DNA of 64,000 bases from positions 100,593-164,592 of the forward strand of contig JAAEQR010000142.1 in assembly GCA_024231215.1 (NCBI GenBank). Direction: 5' to 3'. This document shows positions 3,098 through 61,050 of the stretch, in pieces. Both the position numbers and the translations under genes were made by a program. Position 1 is the first letter of the stretch. Every line of letters begins with the position of its first letter. Under the pieces are notes generated by a model. It saw only the letters and a list, made by a program, of their open reading frames with translations. It had not been told where the DNA came from and ran no database searches. The stretch comes from PVC group bacterium (lineage in GTDB: Bacteria; Omnitrophota; Gorgyraeia; B26-G9).

Positions 3098-3453
3098 AAC
3101 GTCCATTGTGTAAACCACTAAAGTTGAAAAACTTAAAATCAGTTAATGATCTAAAATTTGATGATAAAGGTCTAATCCCAACAATTGTCCAGGATACAAA
3201 AGATAAAAAAATATTAATGGTTGCTTATATGAATAAGGAATCTCTGAAAAAGACTATGAAAACCGGACTGGCTACTTACTGGTCACGCTCTCGCAAATGC
3301 TTTTGGTTAAAAGGGGATACGTCCGGACATTTTCAGAAGGTAAAAAAGATATATTTTGACTGCGACAAAGATACCTTGCTTTTAGAAGTAACCCAAATAG
3401 GCGTTGCTTGTCATACAGGCAAACGTTCATGTTTTTTCACACGGTTAGCATAA
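3088..3453 (+). CDS. hisI: phosphoribosyl-AMP cyclohydrolase
   Basis: 121 aa; LIPTIVQD...YWSRSR...LKGDTSGH...[15 protein letters not shown] are canonical HisI motifs; overlaps hisA by 10 nt. Confidence 0.85.
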
Positions 3454-3454
3454 C

Positions 3455-3482
3455 GGGCGGAGGCAAGCGCCGCCCCTACAAT
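3455..3482 (-). repeat. REP-like GC-rich palindrome (minus strand reads GTAGGGGCGG...CCGCCC) in the 43-nt hisI-trpE gap
   Basis: GGGCGG(3455-3460)/CCGCCC(3470-3475) stem followed by CTAC (GTAG on the minus strand); a closely related element recurs at 57668-57691. Confidence 0.5.
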
Positions 3483-3496
3483 AGGTTATACTTGAT

Positions 3497-53334: not shown

Positions 53335-53877
53335 ATGAAAAAAATCTCTGAAAAGAGTTTATACCAGGGAACCTGGATAAATCTCAAGAAATCGAAGTTT
53401 ATTAGCGATAGGGGAGAGGAAGTCCTCTGGGAATACGTCGAAAGGGTCAATGTAAAGCAAGTCGTGATCATTGTACCTAAATTGGTTCCTTCTAATCGCT
53501 ATATCCTAATCCGGCAGTTCCGCCATGCACTTAACACCCATGTTATTGGCTTACCAGCCGGCTTAATCCACGATGAGGAGGTCTCAAAGGCCGCTCTCCG
53601 GGAACTTAAAGAAGAAACCGGCTATACCGGTACAATTAAAGAAATAAGCCCATTATTAGCCTTAAATTCAGCTTTATCTAATATCAGGGTTCAGTTTGTT
53701 ACCGCAGAAATAGATGAAAATGACCCTGAAAATAAAAACCCGATCCAGAAGCTTGAACCGGAAGAACAGATTGAAGTATTCCTGGTTCAGGATACTAAAG
53801 CAAAAGACTTCATAATAGAGCATAAAGAAAAAGGTGATGATGTCGGAGCCTCGTTGTGGGCAATATTTGGAATATAA
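53335..53877 (+). CDS. NUDIX hydrolase
   Basis: 180 aa; Nudix box G.....EE....ALRELKEETGY. Confidence 0.8.
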   Translation: MKKISEKSLYQGTWINLKKSKFISDRGEEVLWEYVERVNVKQVVIIVPKLVPSNRYILIRQFRHALNTHVIGLPAGLIHDEEVSKAALRELKEETGYTGTIKEISPLLALNSALSNIRVQFVTAEIDENDPENKNPIQKLEPEEQIEVFLVQDTKAKDFIIEHKEKGDDVGASLWAIFGI

Positions 53878-53893
53878 CATGAAAGGAAATACT

Positions 53894-54610
53894 ATGAGGA
53901 AAATAATAATTGCTTGTTTATTGTCGTTGTGTCTTGTCTCAATTGGATATGCTCAGGATACCACTCCAGAGCCTACGACTACAGTTCAAACTTTTAAGGC
54001 AGGGGGGACGCCAATCGCGATTCCGCCGCCAACTCCGGAAATGACCGAGGTTGGGTACGATACTCGTGAGCTCATGGAGATTTTTGTACCACAGAATAAC
54101 CGTCTCATTGCCGCATTCGTACTGACCGAAGATCTTCCTCGGCTCGCAGCCGGAGATGAAAATCTTATAATGTCCCTGTACTCGATGGTTCAAGTTCCTC
54201 GCCGTGGTGAAGCTATGGATTGTGCCGCAAGTGATTTTTCAGAAGTAACCGCCGGTGCAAAGGAGCAGTTCGGAGATATCATGAACTCCTCAATGAAAGA
54301 AGCCGAGGATGAATTCAACCGCCGCATGAAAGCACTTGATCTGGAAGATGCCACAATGAGCATGAAAGATCCGGTGCAAATCGGCTGCCTATTCTCAAAA
54401 CCAGACTCCTATTGTTTTGGGATGATCATGGAGAACACAATAGGTGGAATAACTACAAAGATGACCATGGGCTGCATGCTCCTTCGCGTAAGAAATAGAA
54501 TGATTTTCGTCTATCTCTATAAAGAATACGAAAACGAGGAAACTGTCACTTGGCTTCGTAAAAATACAGAAGCCTGGTCAGACGCTATTCTAGCCGCAAA
54601 TAAGGAGTAG
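53894..54610 (+). CDS. secreted hypothetical protein
   Basis: The ORF opens at 53834, but the likely start is the ATG at 53894 (MRKIIIACLLSLCLVSIGYAQ signal peptide) behind AAGGAAA; no recognisable domain. Confidence 0.5.
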   Translation: MRKIIIACLLSLCLVSIGYAQDTTPEPTTTVQTFKAGGTPIAIPPPTPEMTEVGYDTRELMEIFVPQNNRLIAAFVLTEDLPRLAAGDENLIMSLYSMVQVPRRGEAMDCAASDFSEVTAGAKEQFGDIMNSSMKEAEDEFNRRMKALDLEDATMSMKDPVQIGCLFSKPDSYCFGMIMENTIGGITTKMTMGCMLLRVRNRMIFVYLYKEYENEETVTWLRKNTEAWSDAILAANKE

Positions 54611-54748: not shown

Positions 54749-54782
54749 TTTGTGAGAGATTAATAAAAGGTTTTAGGTAGGT

Positions 54783-54807
54783 GTAGGGACAGGTCTTAGG
54801 CCTGTCC
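54783..54807 (+). repeat. REP element (GTAGGGACAGGTCTTAGGCCTGTCC)
   Basis: GTAG head plus 7-bp GGACAGG/CCTGTCC palindrome; near-identical copies at 58317 and 58626. Confidence 0.6.
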
Positions 54808-54873
54808 TGGATAAAATATAATAACTATGGATTACGTATATTAATTGTTATGTCAAAATAAGGATTTAATATT

Positions 54874-55554
54874 ATGGGGAAATTTTTACCATTATCTTTT
54901 ACGCAACTTGTGGCAGGGATATTTTCTTTTTGTTCTATAATTGCATTCTTTTTATCTTTAAAAACATCAATTCGGGCTCACTCTCTTCGTTTATTTTCAA
55001 TTTCACTCATTAGCGCGCTATCATTATTTTGCAATCATGTGTCGGTCTATTTTGCAAGTGTATTTATAATTGCCACAGCAATAACGGAAACTGAATTTTT
55101 ACAAAATTTAGCAGCAATAATTAGCGATAGCAAAGAATATTTTCATTATAAACAAGCTAAAGAAGGGAAAACTTCTTTAGACAAAATATCCAGCACTGAA
55201 GGAACAATAAAAATTACTAAAAAAGAGACAATTTCTCTTGTAAGAGATCCCATAGAATACAAAATCTTAAACACATTATTTACAAAACAAGTAAATAAAT
55301 TCCCAACATTTTCGCCATTGTTTACCTTTATTATTTCAAGAAACTCTTTTGAGTATCCCAAATTTCGTGAAATGGGTAGTAAATTATATGGCGAAGGATT
55401 AATTGGAGAAACAGAAAATGGACATTATTGTTTAACACAAACTGGATGGGAATGGTGTAAAAAACATTATGACGATTTTAAGTCTTCTCCACAATGGTGG
55501 TCAGAAGAACCAATTATAGTGGAAAATTTAAAAAAAGTATTAGAACAAAAATGA
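54874..55554 (+). CDS. hypothetical membrane protein (2-3 N-terminal TM helices; C-terminal soluble domain with winged-helix-like ...GEGLIGETENGHYCLTQTGWEW)
   Basis: 226-aa ORF in a visibly AT-richer stretch; no known domain recognised. Confidence 0.5.
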   Translation: MGKFLPLSFTQLVAGIFSFCSIIAFFLSLKTSIRAHSLRLFSISLISALSLFCNHVSVYFASVFIIATAITETEFLQNLAAIISDSKEYFHYKQAKEGKTSLDKISSTEGTIKITKKETISLVRDPIEYKILNTLFTKQVNKFPTFSPLFTFIISRNSFEYPKFREMGSKLYGEGLIGETENGHYCLTQTGWEWCKKHYDDFKSSPQWWSEEPIIVENLKKVLEQK

Positions 55555-55577
55555 TAATTGTTAAAGGAAAATAAAAA

Positions 55578-55997
55578 ATGGAAATATTATTTAAAATTGC
55601 AATAACAATAGTTGCTTCTTTTTTAATATATTATCAAATTGTTTTTGTTAAATATATTTGGACGAGCCATATTGATGTTAAGGCAACCTTATTTCAATTT
55701 GTAAAACAAGCTACTCCAAGAACGGATACCATTGCCATAAGAGATCCTAGCAAGATATATCAAAATGGTGAACAGGTCGGAAGTATCATTGGCGCACCTA
55801 AAATAGAAGAAAATATTATTGTATTTGAAAAAATTAGCGAAACAAAAAATCTTAAAAGAGAACAATTTTTTGAATACAAAAGAGATAAATACAAAATAAT
55901 AAAAATTGAAAAAAGTGCTGTTTTAGATATTTCATCAAGTTCTGGGCAATTAAACCATACCTTAACTAATGTTACTTGTGAAAAGATTAACCCATAA
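55578..55997 (+). CDS. hypothetical N-terminally anchored protein
   Basis: 139 aa; one TM helix; AT-rich; no domain recognised. Confidence 0.45.
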   Translation: MEILFKIAITIVASFLIYYQIVFVKYIWTSHIDVKATLFQFVKQATPRTDTIAIRDPSKIYQNGEQVGSIIGAPKIEENIIVFEKISETKNLKREQFFEYKRDKYKIIKIEKSAVLDISSSSGQLNHTLTNVTCEKINP

Positions 55998-56139
55998 CAA
56001 ATCACTTCAGCTAACCCCGCCAAATTTATCCCGAAGCAGGCGAGAGGAACAGCGTGATTTCGCTTCAATTTGCCGGCCCGGCAAAACCGGATATATCGTG
56101 GTTAGTGGGGTTGATCAATTAATGCAAATAATCCCTTAG

Positions 56140-56168
56140 TTGACTTTTTTACAAATAATCTTTATAAT
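56140..56168 (+). promoter_or_regulatory. near-consensus sigma70 promoter (TTGACT-17-TATAAT)
   Basis: Hexamers at 56140-56145 and 56163-56168 with a 17-nt spacer, 10 nt before the ATG at 56178. Confidence 0.55.
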
Positions 56169-56177
56169 TTAATAATC

Positions 56178-57095
56178 ATGGGTGAGATTAAAAAAGAAGA
56201 AAAAAGTATATTAGATTTAGTTGTAGAGGAAACTACTGCAAAACCTAAGCTTAATTGGCAAGAATTTTTGGAGAAATACCCTCCTGGATCTGAATATAGT
56301 ATTATCGGTTGGGCTGACTCCATACTTGTTAGAAATCAATACCGCGGTATTGTAGCTCCCACAATAACTAGATATTGCCCTCAATGCAAGGGGAATCGTT
56401 TCTTTCATTGCAACGACAATACGTCCATTCAGTTTCTTGCGTTTCAAGGTGGCGAACAATTCTTTTTTCTAAAATATATATGTAGGAATTGTGGAGAAAT
56501 TTATATAGACATGGCCTTATTTATTAGAACTATAAATAATACCCCAAAAGGAGACGCAATAGTTCAAAAGTTAGGAGAACTGCCAGTTTTTGGGCCACAC
56601 TCGCCGGCTCAGCTAATCACACTCGTTGGTAAAGATCGAGATCTTTATTTGACTGGTAGGAGAGCAGAAAGTCAAGGGATGGGAATCGGCGCGTATTCTT
56701 ACTATCGACGTATTGTTGAAAATCAAAAAAATGCAATCATTGATAAAATAATTAAAGTATCGCAAAGCCAGCATTCTTCGCAGGAGTTCATCGATAGTTT
56801 AAAAGAAGCAAAAAAAGAAACACGATTCACAACAGCAATCGAAAAAATTAAAGATGGAATTCCAGAATCACTTAAAATGTATGGACACAACCCTCTAACA
56901 ATTTTACATAAGACGTTGAGTGAGGGGTTACATGCTGGAAGTGATAACGAGTGCCTAGAATTGGCAAAAGACATTCGAAATGTATTAACAGAGTTAGCCG
57001 AAAGATGTGCAACTATTTTAAAAGACAATGAAAAATTAAAAAGGTCTATTGGGAAACTTTTTAAACTACCTGAGCAGCCAAAAAATAAAGAATGA
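56178..57095 (+). CDS. hypothetical zinc-ribbon + alpha-helical protein
   Basis: 305 aa; CPQCKG...x26...CRNCGE four-Cys ribbon; C-terminal helical region (...LTILHKTLSEGLHAGSDNECLELAKDIRNVL...) faintly reminiscent of DUF4145-type domains (weak, from memory). Confidence 0.55.
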   Translation: MGEIKKEEKSILDLVVEETTAKPKLNWQEFLEKYPPGSEYSIIGWADSILVRNQYRGIVAPTITRYCPQCKGNRFFHCNDNTSIQFLAFQGGEQFFFLKYICRNCGEIYIDMALFIRTINNTPKGDAIVQKLGELPVFGPHSPAQLITLVGKDRDLYLTGRRAESQGMGIGAYSYYRRIVENQKNAIIDKIIKVSQSQHSSQEFIDSLKEAKKETRFTTAIEKIKDGIPESLKMYGHNPLTILHKTLSEGLHAGSDNECLELAKDIRNVLTELAERCATILKDNEKLKRSIGKLFKLPEQPKNKE

Positions 57096-57520
57096 ATACC
57101 TTTATAGCGCATAATAGCGAATACCTATCCGGCCTAGCTTCATTAATAGCAATCACCACAGCAGTCTTTGCCATACCATCATTTATCATAAAAAAAATTC
57201 TTTATTGTCGGGAGCAGGGTAGACTCTTAAAATATAAAACTATGATTTTCAACATCAACACTCTTGCTGCGGTCAAAACCTTTAAGTTTGTTGATAAAGA
57301 AAAAACTGATTTAACGATCAGAGAGATAGTATCTCTTACTAATAACAAAGAATTGTTCGAAAAATTATATAAGGATCGACCAACAGCTTGGAACGACATC
57401 CTGGAAATTCAAAAAATAAATAACGAGATAATTTTTTATAAGGCAGCTATTCTTACACCTTTAGCTGTACTTGTAATCATGGCACTTAAATTTATAGCGG
57501 TAACCCAATTAAAGCTGTAA
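57092..57520 (+). CDS. small 2-TM membrane protein, translationally coupled to the zinc-ribbon protein
   Basis: 142 aa; ATGA overlap with the upstream stop; TM helices at the N-terminus (LASLIAITTAVFAIPSFII) and C-terminus (ILTPLAVLVIMALKFIAV). Confidence 0.5.
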   Translation: MNTFIAHNSEYLSGLASLIAITTAVFAIPSFIIKKILYCREQGRLLKYKTMIFNINTLAAVKTFKFVDKEKTDLTIREIVSLTNNKELFEKLYKDRPTAWNDILEIQKINNEIIFYKAAILTPLAVLVIMALKFIAVTQLKL

Positions 57521-57667
57521 AACAAATTCCAGTTATATCTCAGGGGGAGCTCTTGACAAAAGCATAGAATACCTGTATGTATACAAATCTATGATTGGAA
57601 CAGAAAACAACAAGATCAGACCCTGAAAACGAAAAACTAATAAAACATCTGACAAATAAATAATACC

Positions 57668-57691
57668 GGGCGGACAGCCATCCGCCCCTAC
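57668..57691 (-). repeat. REP element (minus strand reads GTAGGGGCGGATGGCTGTCCGCCC)
   Basis: GGGCGGA/TCCGCCC stem followed by CTAC; same family as 3455-3482, with an internal GGACAGCC resembling the second REP family. Confidence 0.5.
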
Positions 57692-57738
57692 AATATTACC
57701 AATAAATTACGTATCACAAACCAAGAAAGAAGAATATT

Positions 57739-58311: not shown

Positions 58312-58316
58312 ACTAT

Positions 58317-58341
58317 GTAGGGACAGGCCTAAGGCCTGTCC
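58317..58341 (+). repeat. REP element (GTAGGGACAGGCCTAAGGCCTGTCC), 12 nt upstream of the RAYT start
   Basis: Read directly; perfect inverted copy at 58626-58650. Confidence 0.65.
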
Positions 58342-58352
58342 GAGACGCGACA

Positions 58353-58919
58353 ATGACAAAAAAAATAACCCGTAAAACACATAATCGTTTAAATGGATAC
58401 GATTATTCGCAACCAAATTATTATTACATCACTACCTGCACAGAAAACCACAAAGACTGGTTTGGGGTAATTAATAACAATCAAATGATTTTAAATTCAT
58501 TTGGCCTTATCTGCCGGGAACACCTCCAAAAACTACCTGATCATTATAAAAATATCGAAATCGACAAATTCATAATAATGCCCAATCATGTCCATGCAAT
58601 TATAACCATTAATTATCAGGGTAACGGACAGGCCTTAGGCCTGTCCCTACATAATGACAATAATATTGATATTGCCAAAAATGAACCATTATCTAAAACC
58701 ATCCGTGATTTCAAATCATTCTCATCCCGGGAAATCAACAAAACAATAAATAACGGGAACAAATTCAAATGGCAAAGATCTTTCCATGACCATATAATTA
58801 GAAACGAAACGTCATTAAACAAAATCCGTGAATACATAGCAACCAATCCGGCAACGTGGTATACGGATGAATATACTATCGAAAAAATGGAGATTACAAA
58901 GAAAATCCACACAAAATAG
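58353..58919 (+). CDS. REP-associated tyrosine transposase (RAYT; IS200-like HuH-Y1 transposase)
   Basis: 188 aa; HuH motif MPNHVHAII; C-terminal KWQRSFHDHIIRNE...IREYIATNP with the catalytic Tyr, matching the E. coli TnpA_REP layout (..PEHMHCIW.. / ..IWQPRFWEHAIRN...YIYINP) from memory; flanked by and containing REPs. Confidence 0.75.
   Translation: MTKKITRKTHNRLNGYDYSQPNYYYITTCTENHKDWFGVINNNQMILNSFGLICREHLQKLPDHYKNIEIDKFIIMPNHVHAIITINYQGNGQALGLSLHNDNNIDIAKNEPLSKTIRDFKSFSSREINKTINNGNKFKWQRSFHDHIIRNETSLNKIREYIATNPATWYTDEYTIEKMEITKKIHTK
58626..58650 (-). repeat. REP element inside the RAYT coding sequence (in-frame, encodes ...GQALGLS...)
   Basis: Exact reverse complement of 58317-58341 (the perfect match extends to 29 nt). 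Confidence 0.65.
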
Positions 58920-59449
58920 ACACAATTCCCCTATTTCATAATTTAAAAATCGGCAGGGGAGAGGCTAATTATTTAGCAAATAAATACCCTGAATTCATGT
59001 GATAATTATCAGGTACAGACGAGCAAAAGGCCCCTAAGCATTCACGGGTTCATACGCATAGACCCGCATGCCAATAAACTACAAAATTCTGCCTATAAAG
59101 ATCAAAATCAAAAAAGTTTTAGCCTTAGAAAGCGAATTTAGGGAAAAGAATTATAGATAATTACCCGGATAAACAAAGCGAGATTTAACCCTAAATAACC
59201 AGACCCTAAAAAGAGATATTCATAATATAGGCATTTCTGAGCTTCCGTCGGAAACACCATATGATTAAGTTAACATAAGATATATTATAGGAAGTTGTAT
59301 TATGGTGGAAAATAAGGGGTTTAATGCCTGCTTTTATGGGATTGTGTTGATTTCGTGGTGTTGATTTTTCTCAACACATTTCTGTTGCCTCATATTTCTT
59401 TTGCGCATATTTTTTGTGTTTTTAAAAATAGTTATTAAGCTCAAAATAC

Positions 59450-59785
59450 CTACATATCAAAATGCAACTGCTTATGTGCTAGTTCAGCTGATTTTGTTTT
59501 AAGAGCCTTAGGAGCTTTTTTAGCCACGGATACCAGATGATTTACCGGCTCCAACTTCACAGCCTTAAATGGCTTCTGAGACTCTTTTCCTGCGACATGC
59601 CCACGACCATCTAAATACTCCAAAAGCGTCTTTCTAATAAACACTGACGGCTCTAAATGACTTCCATGAGCTGCCACTTGAACGCTTAGCCATTGCTCAT
59701 GCGTAAGCCTCACATTAATAGTTTTAGTATATTTAATTTGCTTCTTAGGTCTGCCCCTGGTAGGTTTCTTCTGAACGTGATTCAC
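59450..59785 (-). CDS. ribbon-helix-helix mobilisation-type protein (MobC/relaxosome accessory-like), orphan
   Basis: 111 aa; GTG start behind a strong AAGGAGGT RBS; RGRPKK...INVRLTHEQWLSVQVAAHGSHLEPSVFIRKTLLEYL resembles MobC-type RHH proteins of mobilisable elements; composition looks GC-richer than the neighbours. Confidence 0.5.
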   Translation of the reverse strand: MNHVQKKPTRGRPKKQIKYTKTINVRLTHEQWLSVQVAAHGSHLEPSVFIRKTLLEYLDGRGHVAGKESQKPFKAVKLEPVNHLVSVAKKAPKALKTKSAELAHKQLHFDM

Positions 59786-60036
59786 CTTTTACCTCCTTGC
59801 AAAATTGAAATCCATCGCCATCCTGGCTTATTGATAATAAATGTATTATACTATAAAACTATTTTCAAGGCAACAAAAAACCACAATAAAATACAGAAAA
59901 TACCCGTTTCAATATCTTTTAAGTTTATGTCTATAATTATAGTTTTATAGCGTTTTGGAAATTGTATATTGTTCCCCACTTTTGACTTGAAAATAAAATG
60001 TGGTAGATTTGGTTAACTTTGGAAGATTATTTATTA

Positions 60037-61050
60037 TTATATTGCCTGTAAAATTAATTCTTCATTTGGTGAGAATACCTCTTCCAAAACATTAAGAATA
60101 TCCAAAAACTTTAAAATAGCCATCTCATTATAAATAATGTTATTTCCCTTAAAATATGCATTCAGATCGTGAGCTAATACAATATGAACTTTCAAGAAAG
60201 CATTTTTCAACCTATCAAGGTTATCACTGCTATCAGAAATATAAATAGGTTCCATTTCTTTACAAACTGCATCTACTATGTTATCCATGGAAGTTCCCTG
60301 TAATTTACTCTTATACGAAGGATATGCCGACATTATGACTTCCCGGCTAAGCACTTTCATTAAAAAATTATTACTTTTTAAAATACTGCCTGGCTGGCTA
60401 TATGCAATATCTTTATATCTGTCTTCAAAATCTTTCTGTATTTGCTTTTCTATAATATGAACACAAAATAAATCAGATAAAGCACTAAGATAATCTGAAA
60501 CTGCTATATTCTTTACCTGCCAAGTTACTAAGAAACCTTGTTTATTGATAATAATCCTCAAGACAGCCCAAATAAGATAATATTCCTGCTCTTTGGTGTC
60601 CATATCTTGCGATATGTTTATTTGATACATTTTGCCATTTTTCTGCAATAAAGGTATTACCTCTTTGCTTTCGTTTAACATGATATCGTGATTAATCCTG
60701 TATTTTTGTTTAAGAATACTTAGCCGAGACTGATTATCAGAACAATTGGTATATTTTTCAATAAATCCCATTCTGGTCATCGGCAGAACTCTCTGCAGAT
60801 CAGAATCGGTTAGCTGTCTATTATCTGCATCTAAAATACTTTGTGAATTTAATTTTTGTAAAAAACTATCCTTGATTTCTACAATTGATATATGAACCCG
60901 CGGAGACAATAAACTCTGGATAGAACTGTGCCTTGAAGCAGCAAAAGACGTAGTCTCCCCTGCCCAAGCTATCTGTCCTAAAAGAATAGTATTTAGCAGT
61001 ATTACAACTATGCTTTTATTTATATTATGCTTTGGGTTAAATTTAACCAT
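60037..61050 (-). CDS. secreted hypothetical protein
   Basis: 337 aa; N-terminal signal-like IVVILLNTILLGQIAWAG; AT-rich; no domain recognised. Confidence 0.5.
   Translation of the reverse strand: MVKFNPKHNINKSIVVILLNTILLGQIAWAGETTSFAASRHSSIQSLLSPRVHISIVEIKDSFLQKLNSQSILDADNRQLTDSDLQRVLPMTRMGFIEKYTNCSDNQSRLSILKQKYRINHDIMLNESKEVIPLLQKNGKMYQINISQDMDTKEQEYYLIWAVLRIIINKQGFLVTWQVKNIAVSDYLSALSDLFCVHIIEKQIQKDFEDRYKDIAYSQPGSILKSNNFLMKVLSREVIMSAYPSYKSKLQGTSMDNIVDAVCKEMEPIYISDSSDNLDRLKNAFLKVHIVLAHDLNAYFKGNNIIYNEMAILKFLDILNVLEEVFSPNEELILQAI

Follow-up and report, generated by a model that had tools for sequence, protein, structure and literature searches.

The concept of the phage moron, familiar from HK97 and lambda, describes single genes, independently transcribed and compositionally distinct, that are inserted in the genomes of temperate phages. 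Repetitive extragenic palindromes (REPs) of the GTAG-tagged type are defined by a GTAG tag and a palindrome; they have been reported also from Planctomycetes, typically with genes for REP-associated tyrosine transposases (RAYTs), and are thought to be mobilised by these enzymes (PMC3733652). In this study, we were interested in a locus that can be compared with both, a patch of 2.9 kb between two oppositely oriented GTAG-tagged REPs in the metagenome-assembled genome of a PVC group bacterium (Omnitrophota; GenBank assembly GCA_024231215.1). It lies in a stretch of 64,000 nucleotides (contig JAAEQR010000142.1, positions 100,593 to 164,592), which was analysed as a whole and is called the window here, and it holds four genes, A to D (locus tags GY853_07765 to 07780).

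A sequence-only reading had described the patch as an AT-rich, apparently horizontally acquired island, in which C, encoding a zinc-ribbon protein, and D, encoding a small membrane protein, formed a two-gene cassette of the kind seen in abortive-infection (Abi), toxin-antitoxin (TA) and anti-phage modules. The island, its four open reading frames (ORFs), their predicted transmembrane helices, the Cys4 motif and the ATGA overlap of C and D are all present; the cassette dissolved on comparison with other genomes. We consider it fairly probable that the patch is a variable region in a REP/RAYT cluster, that its four genes are independent accessory genes rather than one system, and that C represents a stand-alone mobile family.

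Results

The gene C family and its neighbours

Gene C (56178-57095, plus strand) encodes 305 residues, and its stop codon overlaps the start codon of gene D (57092-57520, plus strand; 142 residues) as ATGA. We found 482 homologs of C at E ≤ 0.01; among the matches listed, identity is about 40-49% over ~90% of the length, and no homolog listed has a Pfam domain. With one genome taken per species, C is carried by 360 of 185,579 species, spread over at least 16 phyla. Carriers belong to the Alpha-, Beta-, Gamma- and Deltaproteobacteria, Bacteroidota, Fodinibius and Ignavibacteriota, and further to Acidobacteriota, Verrucomicrobiota, Planctomycetota, Heliobacteriaceae, Rubrobacter, Longimicrobiaceae, Nitrospinota, Nitrospirota, Fibrobacterota, Parcubacteria and Poribacteria. 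Cultured carriers are Rhizobium leguminosarum TRX32, Caenimonas koreensis DSM 17982, Massilia cavernae, Thioalkalivibrio sp. ALJ21, Fodinibius salsisoli and Leptospira. Homologs are further found on two Leptospira plasmids, on 22 IMG/VR contigs and in the genome of a temperate Rhizobium phage, vB_RleA_TRX32-1.

None of the four proteins had been given a nameable domain, which agrees with our scans of A to D against Pfam, NCBIfam, PADLOC and PHROGs, where the sole match was that of C to PHROG 25239, a group of unknown function (E = 5e-57; residues 67-295 on profile positions 61-287 of 294). Since this PHROG carries no annotation, the match gives C a membership and no function. A literature look-up on the accessions and the PHROG identifier returned no papers, and the paper on phage TRX32-1 is silent on the gene. 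Searching the contig collection for the exact C sequence gave no record. Against PADLOC-DB 2.0.0, A hit only PDC-M49B (E = 0.025) and D only SduA (E = 0.0036), both at chance level, and B and C hit nothing; the patch genes match no known defence, TA or Abi family.

Tabulation of neighbourhoods yielded no conserved neighbour or partner of C. Across 86 loci, the same-strand ORF 3' of C ranges from none to one of 1279 residues, at gaps of -23 to +297 nt, and BLAST comparison of these ORFs found no common family; where ORFs did group, the genomes were duplicates or close relatives of one another. No relative of A, B or D turned up in these 86 loci, a set assembled before the viral and plasmid loci were added, and conversely no C relative was found in A loci or D loci. 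The recurrence of C and D as neighbours that would mark a two-gene TA or Abi system is therefore absent from both sets of loci. When the 2745 ORFs within ~5 kb of C in 72 loci were clustered, tyrosine integrases formed the largest family found across loci (7 loci), followed by resolvases (3 loci) and then by lineage-specific synteny with fabH and pdxS. The 147 immediate neighbours match 94 different Pfam families, most of them housekeeping. One homolog lies 16 nt after ilvN and before ilvC, another directly after pdxS, and the genes tightly coupled to the 3' side of C include those for a MiaB/RimO-like enzyme and a PMT glycosyltransferase.

Some immediate neighbours of C look defence-like in PADLOC, namely methyltransferases, MADS components, a dGTPase, PD-T7-4, PbeA and SAVED-HNH. 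In two loci, the gene that lies 1-7 nt 3' of the C homolog encodes a SIR2-STAND NTPase (L086:5821-8370) or an XPB/PbeA-like helicase (L012:5815-7239), and on Leptospira mayottensis plasmid p1 (L201) a Shedu nuclease gene is found ~2 kb away. RAYT genes were considered as companions of C homologs and discarded, given that only one of the 86 loci has one.

Signs of mobility in the C family

C has a lower GC content than its flanks at all 23 viral and plasmid loci and at 69 of the 74 genome loci; over the genome loci, the difference averages -7.7 points. At third codon positions (GC3), it is 0.49 in C versus 0.63 in neighbouring long ORFs, and lower in 55 of 70 loci (Wilcoxon p = 1e-8), so the low GC of C is not merely an effect of amino-acid composition. 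Averaged over loci, the dip has a sharp onset ~200 nt upstream of C. In two unrelated metagenome-assembled genomes, the C homologs (L077:1777-2685 and L085:425-1333) are 87% identical at the DNA level and their flanks are unrelated; the common block begins ~30 nt upstream of the start codon and ends exactly at the stop codon. We noticed no terminal repeats at these boundaries. Just upstream of the block, each of the two loci has a GC-rich hairpin, a different one in each.

In phage TRX32-1, which was induced from a lysogen, the C homolog is the only opposite-strand gene in the structural module and lies beside the major capsid gene. A related prophage (L113) also carries a homolog near the major capsid gene, and in two other loci (L112 and L115) the homolog adjoins an integrase at a prophage end. 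Taken together, these observations suggest that the C family behaves as a gene-sized mobile unit of the moron type.

Almost all carrier genomes have a single copy of C. Two contigs attributed to one Rhodospirillaceae isolate (L048 and L061) have in common a 4.3-kb segment, 93% identical, with the C homolog and the gene after it; either the segment was duplicated in the genome, or the two are duplicates of assembly or strain. The idea of C as a multicopy element resembling an insertion sequence was rejected, given that this segment accounts for the sole two-copy genome.

Predicted structure of the C protein

The AlphaFold2 (AF2) model of C, made with 49 sequences, has a predicted local distance difference test score (pLDDT) of 89.4. 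Its beta-rich domain (residues 24-135) contains a Cys4 zinc ribbon (CxxC...CxxC), in which C67, C70, C102 and C105 are invariant or nearly so among the 49 family members. A conserved linker, KxGExPxFGP, follows the beta-domain and leads to a helical domain (residues 144-295). Mean pairwise identity in the family is 61% in the helical domain versus 32% in the zinc-ribbon domain, and R161, R162, E164, Y175, Y176, R177, R178, E181, H237, N238, H244, H252 and R267 of the former are near-invariant. For a conflict protein, one would expect such a pairing of a conserved core with a variable domain for recognition.

Of the structure searches that had been proposed for the patch proteins, Foldseek with C against PDB and BFVD returned nothing at E ≤ 0.001. 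In a profile search of PDB sequences, the only candidate was NS3 helicase (E = 0.73), which we judged spurious, and a Pfam scan of the 49 members pointed to no consistent family.

Gene D and its pairing with C

By hydropathy, D has one transmembrane helix at each end and C has none. In a word-indexed search of 5.8 billion proteins, D found only itself, and phmmer, run exhaustively on 1.84 billion representatives, gave four weak relatives (E 1.6e-8 to 2.8e-4), which keep the layout of two transmembrane helices around a soluble part. The one relative with adequate flanks has a thiolase gene on one side and a methyltransferase gene on the other, and no C-like sequence was found in the loci of D relatives. 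D is thus a near-orphan and, as described below, its codon composition is host-like, in contrast to that of C. The translational coupling of C and D appears to be local to the source lineage, and the comparison does not point to a conserved system of sensor and membrane effector.

Genes A and B

Gene A (54874-55554, plus strand; 226 residues) combines an N-terminal membrane module of three helices (two to three by hydropathy), a disordered linker and a winged-helix-like C-terminal domain (AF2 pLDDT 82). The winged helix had been suspected from the sequence, and it is weakly backed by sub-threshold matches to DUF4364 and HTH_45 and by the helix-helix-hairpin arrangement of the model (helices 126-142 and 161-174, hairpin 177-187). 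None of the 58 homologs of A contains a Pfam domain. Its membrane module has the conserved motif YFASVFIIATAITExEFLQNLAAIIRGSK, and the two modules are shuffled across relatives. Elsewhere the membrane module is fused, via an acidic linker, to a PD-(D/E)xK-like domain marked by LDG...FE(V/I)KY. Such fusions are found in eight viral contigs (IMG/VR, L202-L209) and in several other proteins (P0169-P0177), one of which, P0169, reaches the Pfam cut-off for YqaJ. They would make up a prophage family of putative nucleases anchored in the membrane, for which there is no Pfam model. Homologs of A occur between a type I restriction-modification operon and a DUF1016 nuclease gene, beside a TA pair, and before a gene for an SMC_N/AAA ATPase.

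Gene B (55578-55997, plus strand; 139 residues) begins 23 nt beyond the end of A, with which it probably shares a transcript. It has a single N-terminal transmembrane helix, and limited searches (Pfam, NCBIfam, PADLOC, PHROGs and viral sequences) found no relative. We considered B as a conserved partner of A and rejected this, given that no B-like gene follows A homologs in the A loci, where unrelated genes take its place; the 135-residue neighbour in one locus (L088) aligns with B only at E = 0.01.

Composition of the patch

The GC content of the window is 37.4%. The patch (54808-57667) has 32.2%, versus 37.7 ± 0.9% in same-size windows from the first 53 kb of the window (z = -6.3), and lies below every one of these windows. 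As a whole, therefore, the patch is the compositional island that had been read from the sequence, with both REPs in place at its edges. The four genes contribute unequally. A has 30.0% GC (z = -3.1) and a GC3 of 0.19 (z = -5.6), B 26.9% (z = -3.5) and 0.16 (z = -6.8), and A and B together have 28.5% (z = -4.9). C has 35.9% GC (z = -0.8) and a GC3 of 0.27, and D 32.9% (z = -1.6) and 0.32. Against 34 long background ORFs (GC3 0.331 ± 0.024), A, B and C each fall below all 34, and D is typical. The low GC of the patch is driven mainly by A and B, and C is deviant only at third codon positions. The patch does look horizontally acquired, as had been suggested; A, B and C have a foreign GC3, and the C family is patchy and mobile.

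Between the A/B and C/D halves lies a relatively GC-rich spacer (55998-56139); the whole interval between B and C (55998-56177) has 40% GC versus 28.5% for A and B. The spacer contains a perfect palindrome, TTGCCGGCCCGGCAA, at about 56082-56096, and has no Rfam match, nor does the larger region from 53.5 to 60.5 kb. It may be the junction of two separate acquisitions, or a protein-binding site. Directly after it comes a sigma-70-like promoter, TTGACT-17-TATAAT (56140-56168, plus strand), which had been called near-perfect and which matches at 11 of 12 positions. It is the best site in the region, where promoter-like sites as such are not above chance (13 found versus 15.4 expected). It ends 9 nt before the ATG of C, and there is no Shine-Dalgarno sequence; any C mRNA that starts from this site would have no leader or almost none.

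REP elements and the RAYT gene

Two sequence classes of GTAG-tagged REP are present. The left edge of the patch is of class 1 (TGTAGGGACAGGTCTTAGGCCTGTCC; 54782-54807, plus strand; hairpin -7.9 kcal/mol, z = -3.9). A further copy (58314-58342, plus strand) precedes the RAYT start codon by 11 nt, and its perfect complement (58625-58653, minus strand) lies inside the RAYT coding sequence, which makes three class 1 copies in the window where 0 are expected. The right edge is of class 2 (ATTGTAGGGGCGGATGGCTGTCCGCCCGG on the minus strand; 57665-57692; hairpin -9.0 kcal/mol, z = -3.3), with the pattern ATTGTAGGGGCGG...CCGCCCG. As a whole sequence this hairpin is unique; a second class 2 copy (3447-3485, minus strand) has a 13-nt head and the stem in common with it. 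The right-edge hairpin also scored as a minus-strand terminator-like site. Each of the five REPs has a TGTAG head, directly followed by a GC stem of 8-9 bp; hairpin energies are -7.9 to -10.6 kcal/mol (z -3.3 to -5.7) and the elements are 26-29 nt long. Within the 64 kb, they combine the GC-rich palindrome and the GTAG tag with repetition and association with a RAYT gene.

The RAYT-like gene (58353-58919, plus strand) encodes an IS200-like Y1 transposase (Pfam Y1_Tnp, E = 2.2e-9) and probably gave rise to the REPs clustered here. The copy within it corresponds to residues ~91-100 ('NGQALGLSLH'), past the HUH motif and ahead of the C-terminal part, and seems to be a REP that is read in frame within its own transposase gene. 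Given that the Y1_Tnp match comes in two stretches, the best of which covers residues 105-164, the match may be split around the internal REP.

Surroundings of the patch

On its 5' side the patch is preceded by an AroB-like gene, by further ORFs that resemble, by eye, a GNAT acetyltransferase and a NUDIX hydrolase, and then by a 258-residue ORF (53834-54610) that is markedly GC-rich for this genome (45.3%, z = +3.3) and looks secreted or lipoprotein-like by eye. Pfam, NCBIfam and PHROGs have no match to this ORF, a metagenome scan gave no relative, and it appears to be another foreign orphan adjoining the patch. On the 3' side are an FMN reductase gene and the RAYT-like gene. These are followed by a second AT-rich stretch (58920-61050; GC 33.2%, z = -3.9), which encodes a 111-residue minus-strand ORF with a weak match to a NikA-like mobilisation protein (E = 3.4e-4) and a 337-residue orphan, so that the variable, possibly mobile region may reach to at least 61 kb. 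With the GC-rich 258-residue gene, this AT-rich stretch and the differences among A to D, the region from 53.8 to 61 kb is a compositional mosaic, and the four genes do not have one common history.

Discussion

From the perspective of how the patch arose, we suspect that its 2.9 kb collected four independently evolving accessory genes. In this scenario, A would be a membrane-anchored winged-helix protein of a modular family, B an orphan co-transcribed with it, and D a rare protein with two transmembrane helices whose coupling to C is lineage-specific. C would spread as a gene-sized unit, much like a moron, with a strong promoter of its own at this locus and with unrelated neighbours across the family. 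Its protein may act alone, probably as a dimer or oligomer. The fast-evolving zinc-ribbon domain could recognise a nucleic-acid or protein ligand, and the conserved HEPN-like helical domain would perform a conserved step, most likely in conflict between phage and host or among mobile elements, for example in exclusion or abortive infection.

The anatomy of the patch, the distribution of its genes, the absence of a conserved partner and the compositional signals are direct observations; use of the promoter, leaderless expression and a conflict function are what we infer. The presence of C in a temperate phage, in prophages and on plasmids, sometimes beside defence genes, makes the anti-phage role that had been proposed plausible for C, and not for C and D as a module. 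We regard some role of the C family in defence or exclusion as possible, if somewhat doubtful. A bolder version, in which C stands for a new class of mobile proteins that confer immunity or exclusion on their own, with a Cys4 domain that senses the invader, a non-canonical HEPN-like domain and D as a locally recruited accessory membrane effector, is in our view unlikely.

Several observations weigh against independent genes and a stand-alone C. Per base, C is no commoner in phage and plasmid records than in chromosomes, so the family is not specifically a phage gene. The defence-like share of the immediate neighbours, estimated from PADLOC counts per family, is roughly 8-12 of 147, which is no strong concentration in defence islands. 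In about one of four loci, an ORF follows C at close spacing, and the averaged GC dip fades over ~800 nt downstream of the gene; together these leave room for a partner that is swapped fast. The ATGA overlap argues for co-expression of C and D in the source genome. The closest AroB relative is only ~53% identical and synteny stops at the GNAT gene, so the collections searched have no close relative for an empty-site comparison. Function has been demonstrated for no member of the four families.

One alternative is that C and D are a true two-component module, in which a conserved sensor is joined to an effector that is exchanged rapidly (here a membrane protein, different effectors in other genomes), as in defence systems with swappable effectors. 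The overlap of the two genes would be expected of such a module, as would an ORF on the same strand that starts no more than 40 nt beyond C, present in 20 of ~76 genome loci, the low GC that extends ~800 nt beyond the gene on average, and the defence-like character of some 3' genes, such as those for the SIR2-STAND protein (L086) and the PbeA-like helicase (L012). Yet many C homologs are solitary, between ilvN and ilvC or antisense in a phage structural module; the coupled genes elsewhere include the housekeeping MiaB/RimO-like protein and the PMT glycosyltransferase, the downstream ORFs have no sequence family in common, and D has relatives without C. The DNA common to L077 and L085 stops at the stop codon of C, and D has a host-like GC3 where C does not. 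We consider such a module decidedly unlikely. Only slightly less credible is a purely selfish C, a new homing endonuclease or minimal transposase that inserts between genes without benefit to the host. Free-standing homing endonuclease genes are often found in phage structural modules, and there too a C homolog is inserted. The gene-sized unit of transfer, the AT-shifted composition and the insertion of C in operons or beside conserved genes (ilvN/ilvC, pdxS, fabH) would all suit a selfish gene. What speaks against it is the lack of a recurrent target, with neighbours from 94 Pfam families and with shared neighbours only among related genomes, as well as the single copy in almost all genomes. 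C matches no nuclease or transposase family and no terminal repeats were noticed. The family thus has neither the recurrent target or identical copies nor the nuclease or transposase domain that are characteristic of homing endonucleases and insertion sequences.

There is also the possibility that the two REPs delimit a composite element mobilised by RAYT, in which the four genes moved as one cargo. Opposite GTAG-tagged REPs do bracket the patch, a RAYT gene lies 0.7 kb away, and it has been suggested that such REPs move by RAYT action (PMC3733652). The flanking REPs belong to different sequence classes, though; three compositional signatures are seen among the four genes, which are never found together elsewhere, and the patch, at 2.9 kb, is far longer than the REP doublets known so far. 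Given that REPs are normally intergenic, their bracketing of the patch can be a coincidence, and we hold the composite element to be very improbable. The reading of four independent genes, with C as a stand-alone mobile family, accommodates these observations best in our judgement.

The patch carries a warning against inferring a system from one genome; a convincing layout of sensor and membrane effector, complete with translational coupling and a consensus promoter, dissolved once the neighbourhoods of homologs were tabulated. It also yields a concrete lead, given that the C family is unannotated, ~300 residues long and without a Pfam model, and combines a variable zinc ribbon with a conserved helical domain. 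If its members were single-gene exclusion factors, the family would add a compact, easily transferable member to the defence repertoire.

Comparison with known systems

The HEPN superfamily is a possible comparison for the helical domain of C, and the domain departs from it in several respects. The Rx4-6H motif appears in no aligned column in more than 3 of the 49 family sequences, so the step performed by C would not be canonical HEPN RNase chemistry. HEPN-clan Pfam models match none of the 49 members at E ≤ 0.1, and in comparison with HEPN proteins of conflict systems (RnlA/LsoA, the Abi-type HEPN of AbiA, Csm6/Csx1 and MNT-HEPN toxins) the scores of the C domain overlap those of generic helical bundles. 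We know of no described architecture in which HEPN is fused to a Cys4 zinc-ribbon beta-domain.

The REPs at the edges of the patch differ from described GTAG-tagged REP/RAYT systems (PMC3733652, PMC2817692) in the apparently in-frame copy within the RAYT gene and in the occurrence of two sequence classes together. They resemble these systems in the TGTAG head and the palindrome, in being found in several copies and in both orientations, and in a Y1_Tnp gene that is flanked by one copy.

With phage morons, the differences are that most C homologs are chromosomal with no recognisable prophage around them, that the family is not enriched in phages per base, that no host phenotype is known for it, and that C in the window has no phage genes around it and no downstream terminator, the last because D overlaps its stop codon. 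The likeness lies in the organisation and the composition of the gene. C in the window is a single gene with its own predicted consensus promoter and a GC3 below the window background, and its homologs are AT-shifted, with GC or GC3 below the flanks in most loci. Insertion in a temperate phage is seen for the homolog in vB_RleA_TRX32-1, where it is the lone antisense gene, and in prophage L113, and at the prophage ends of L112 and L115 the homologs stand beside integrases.

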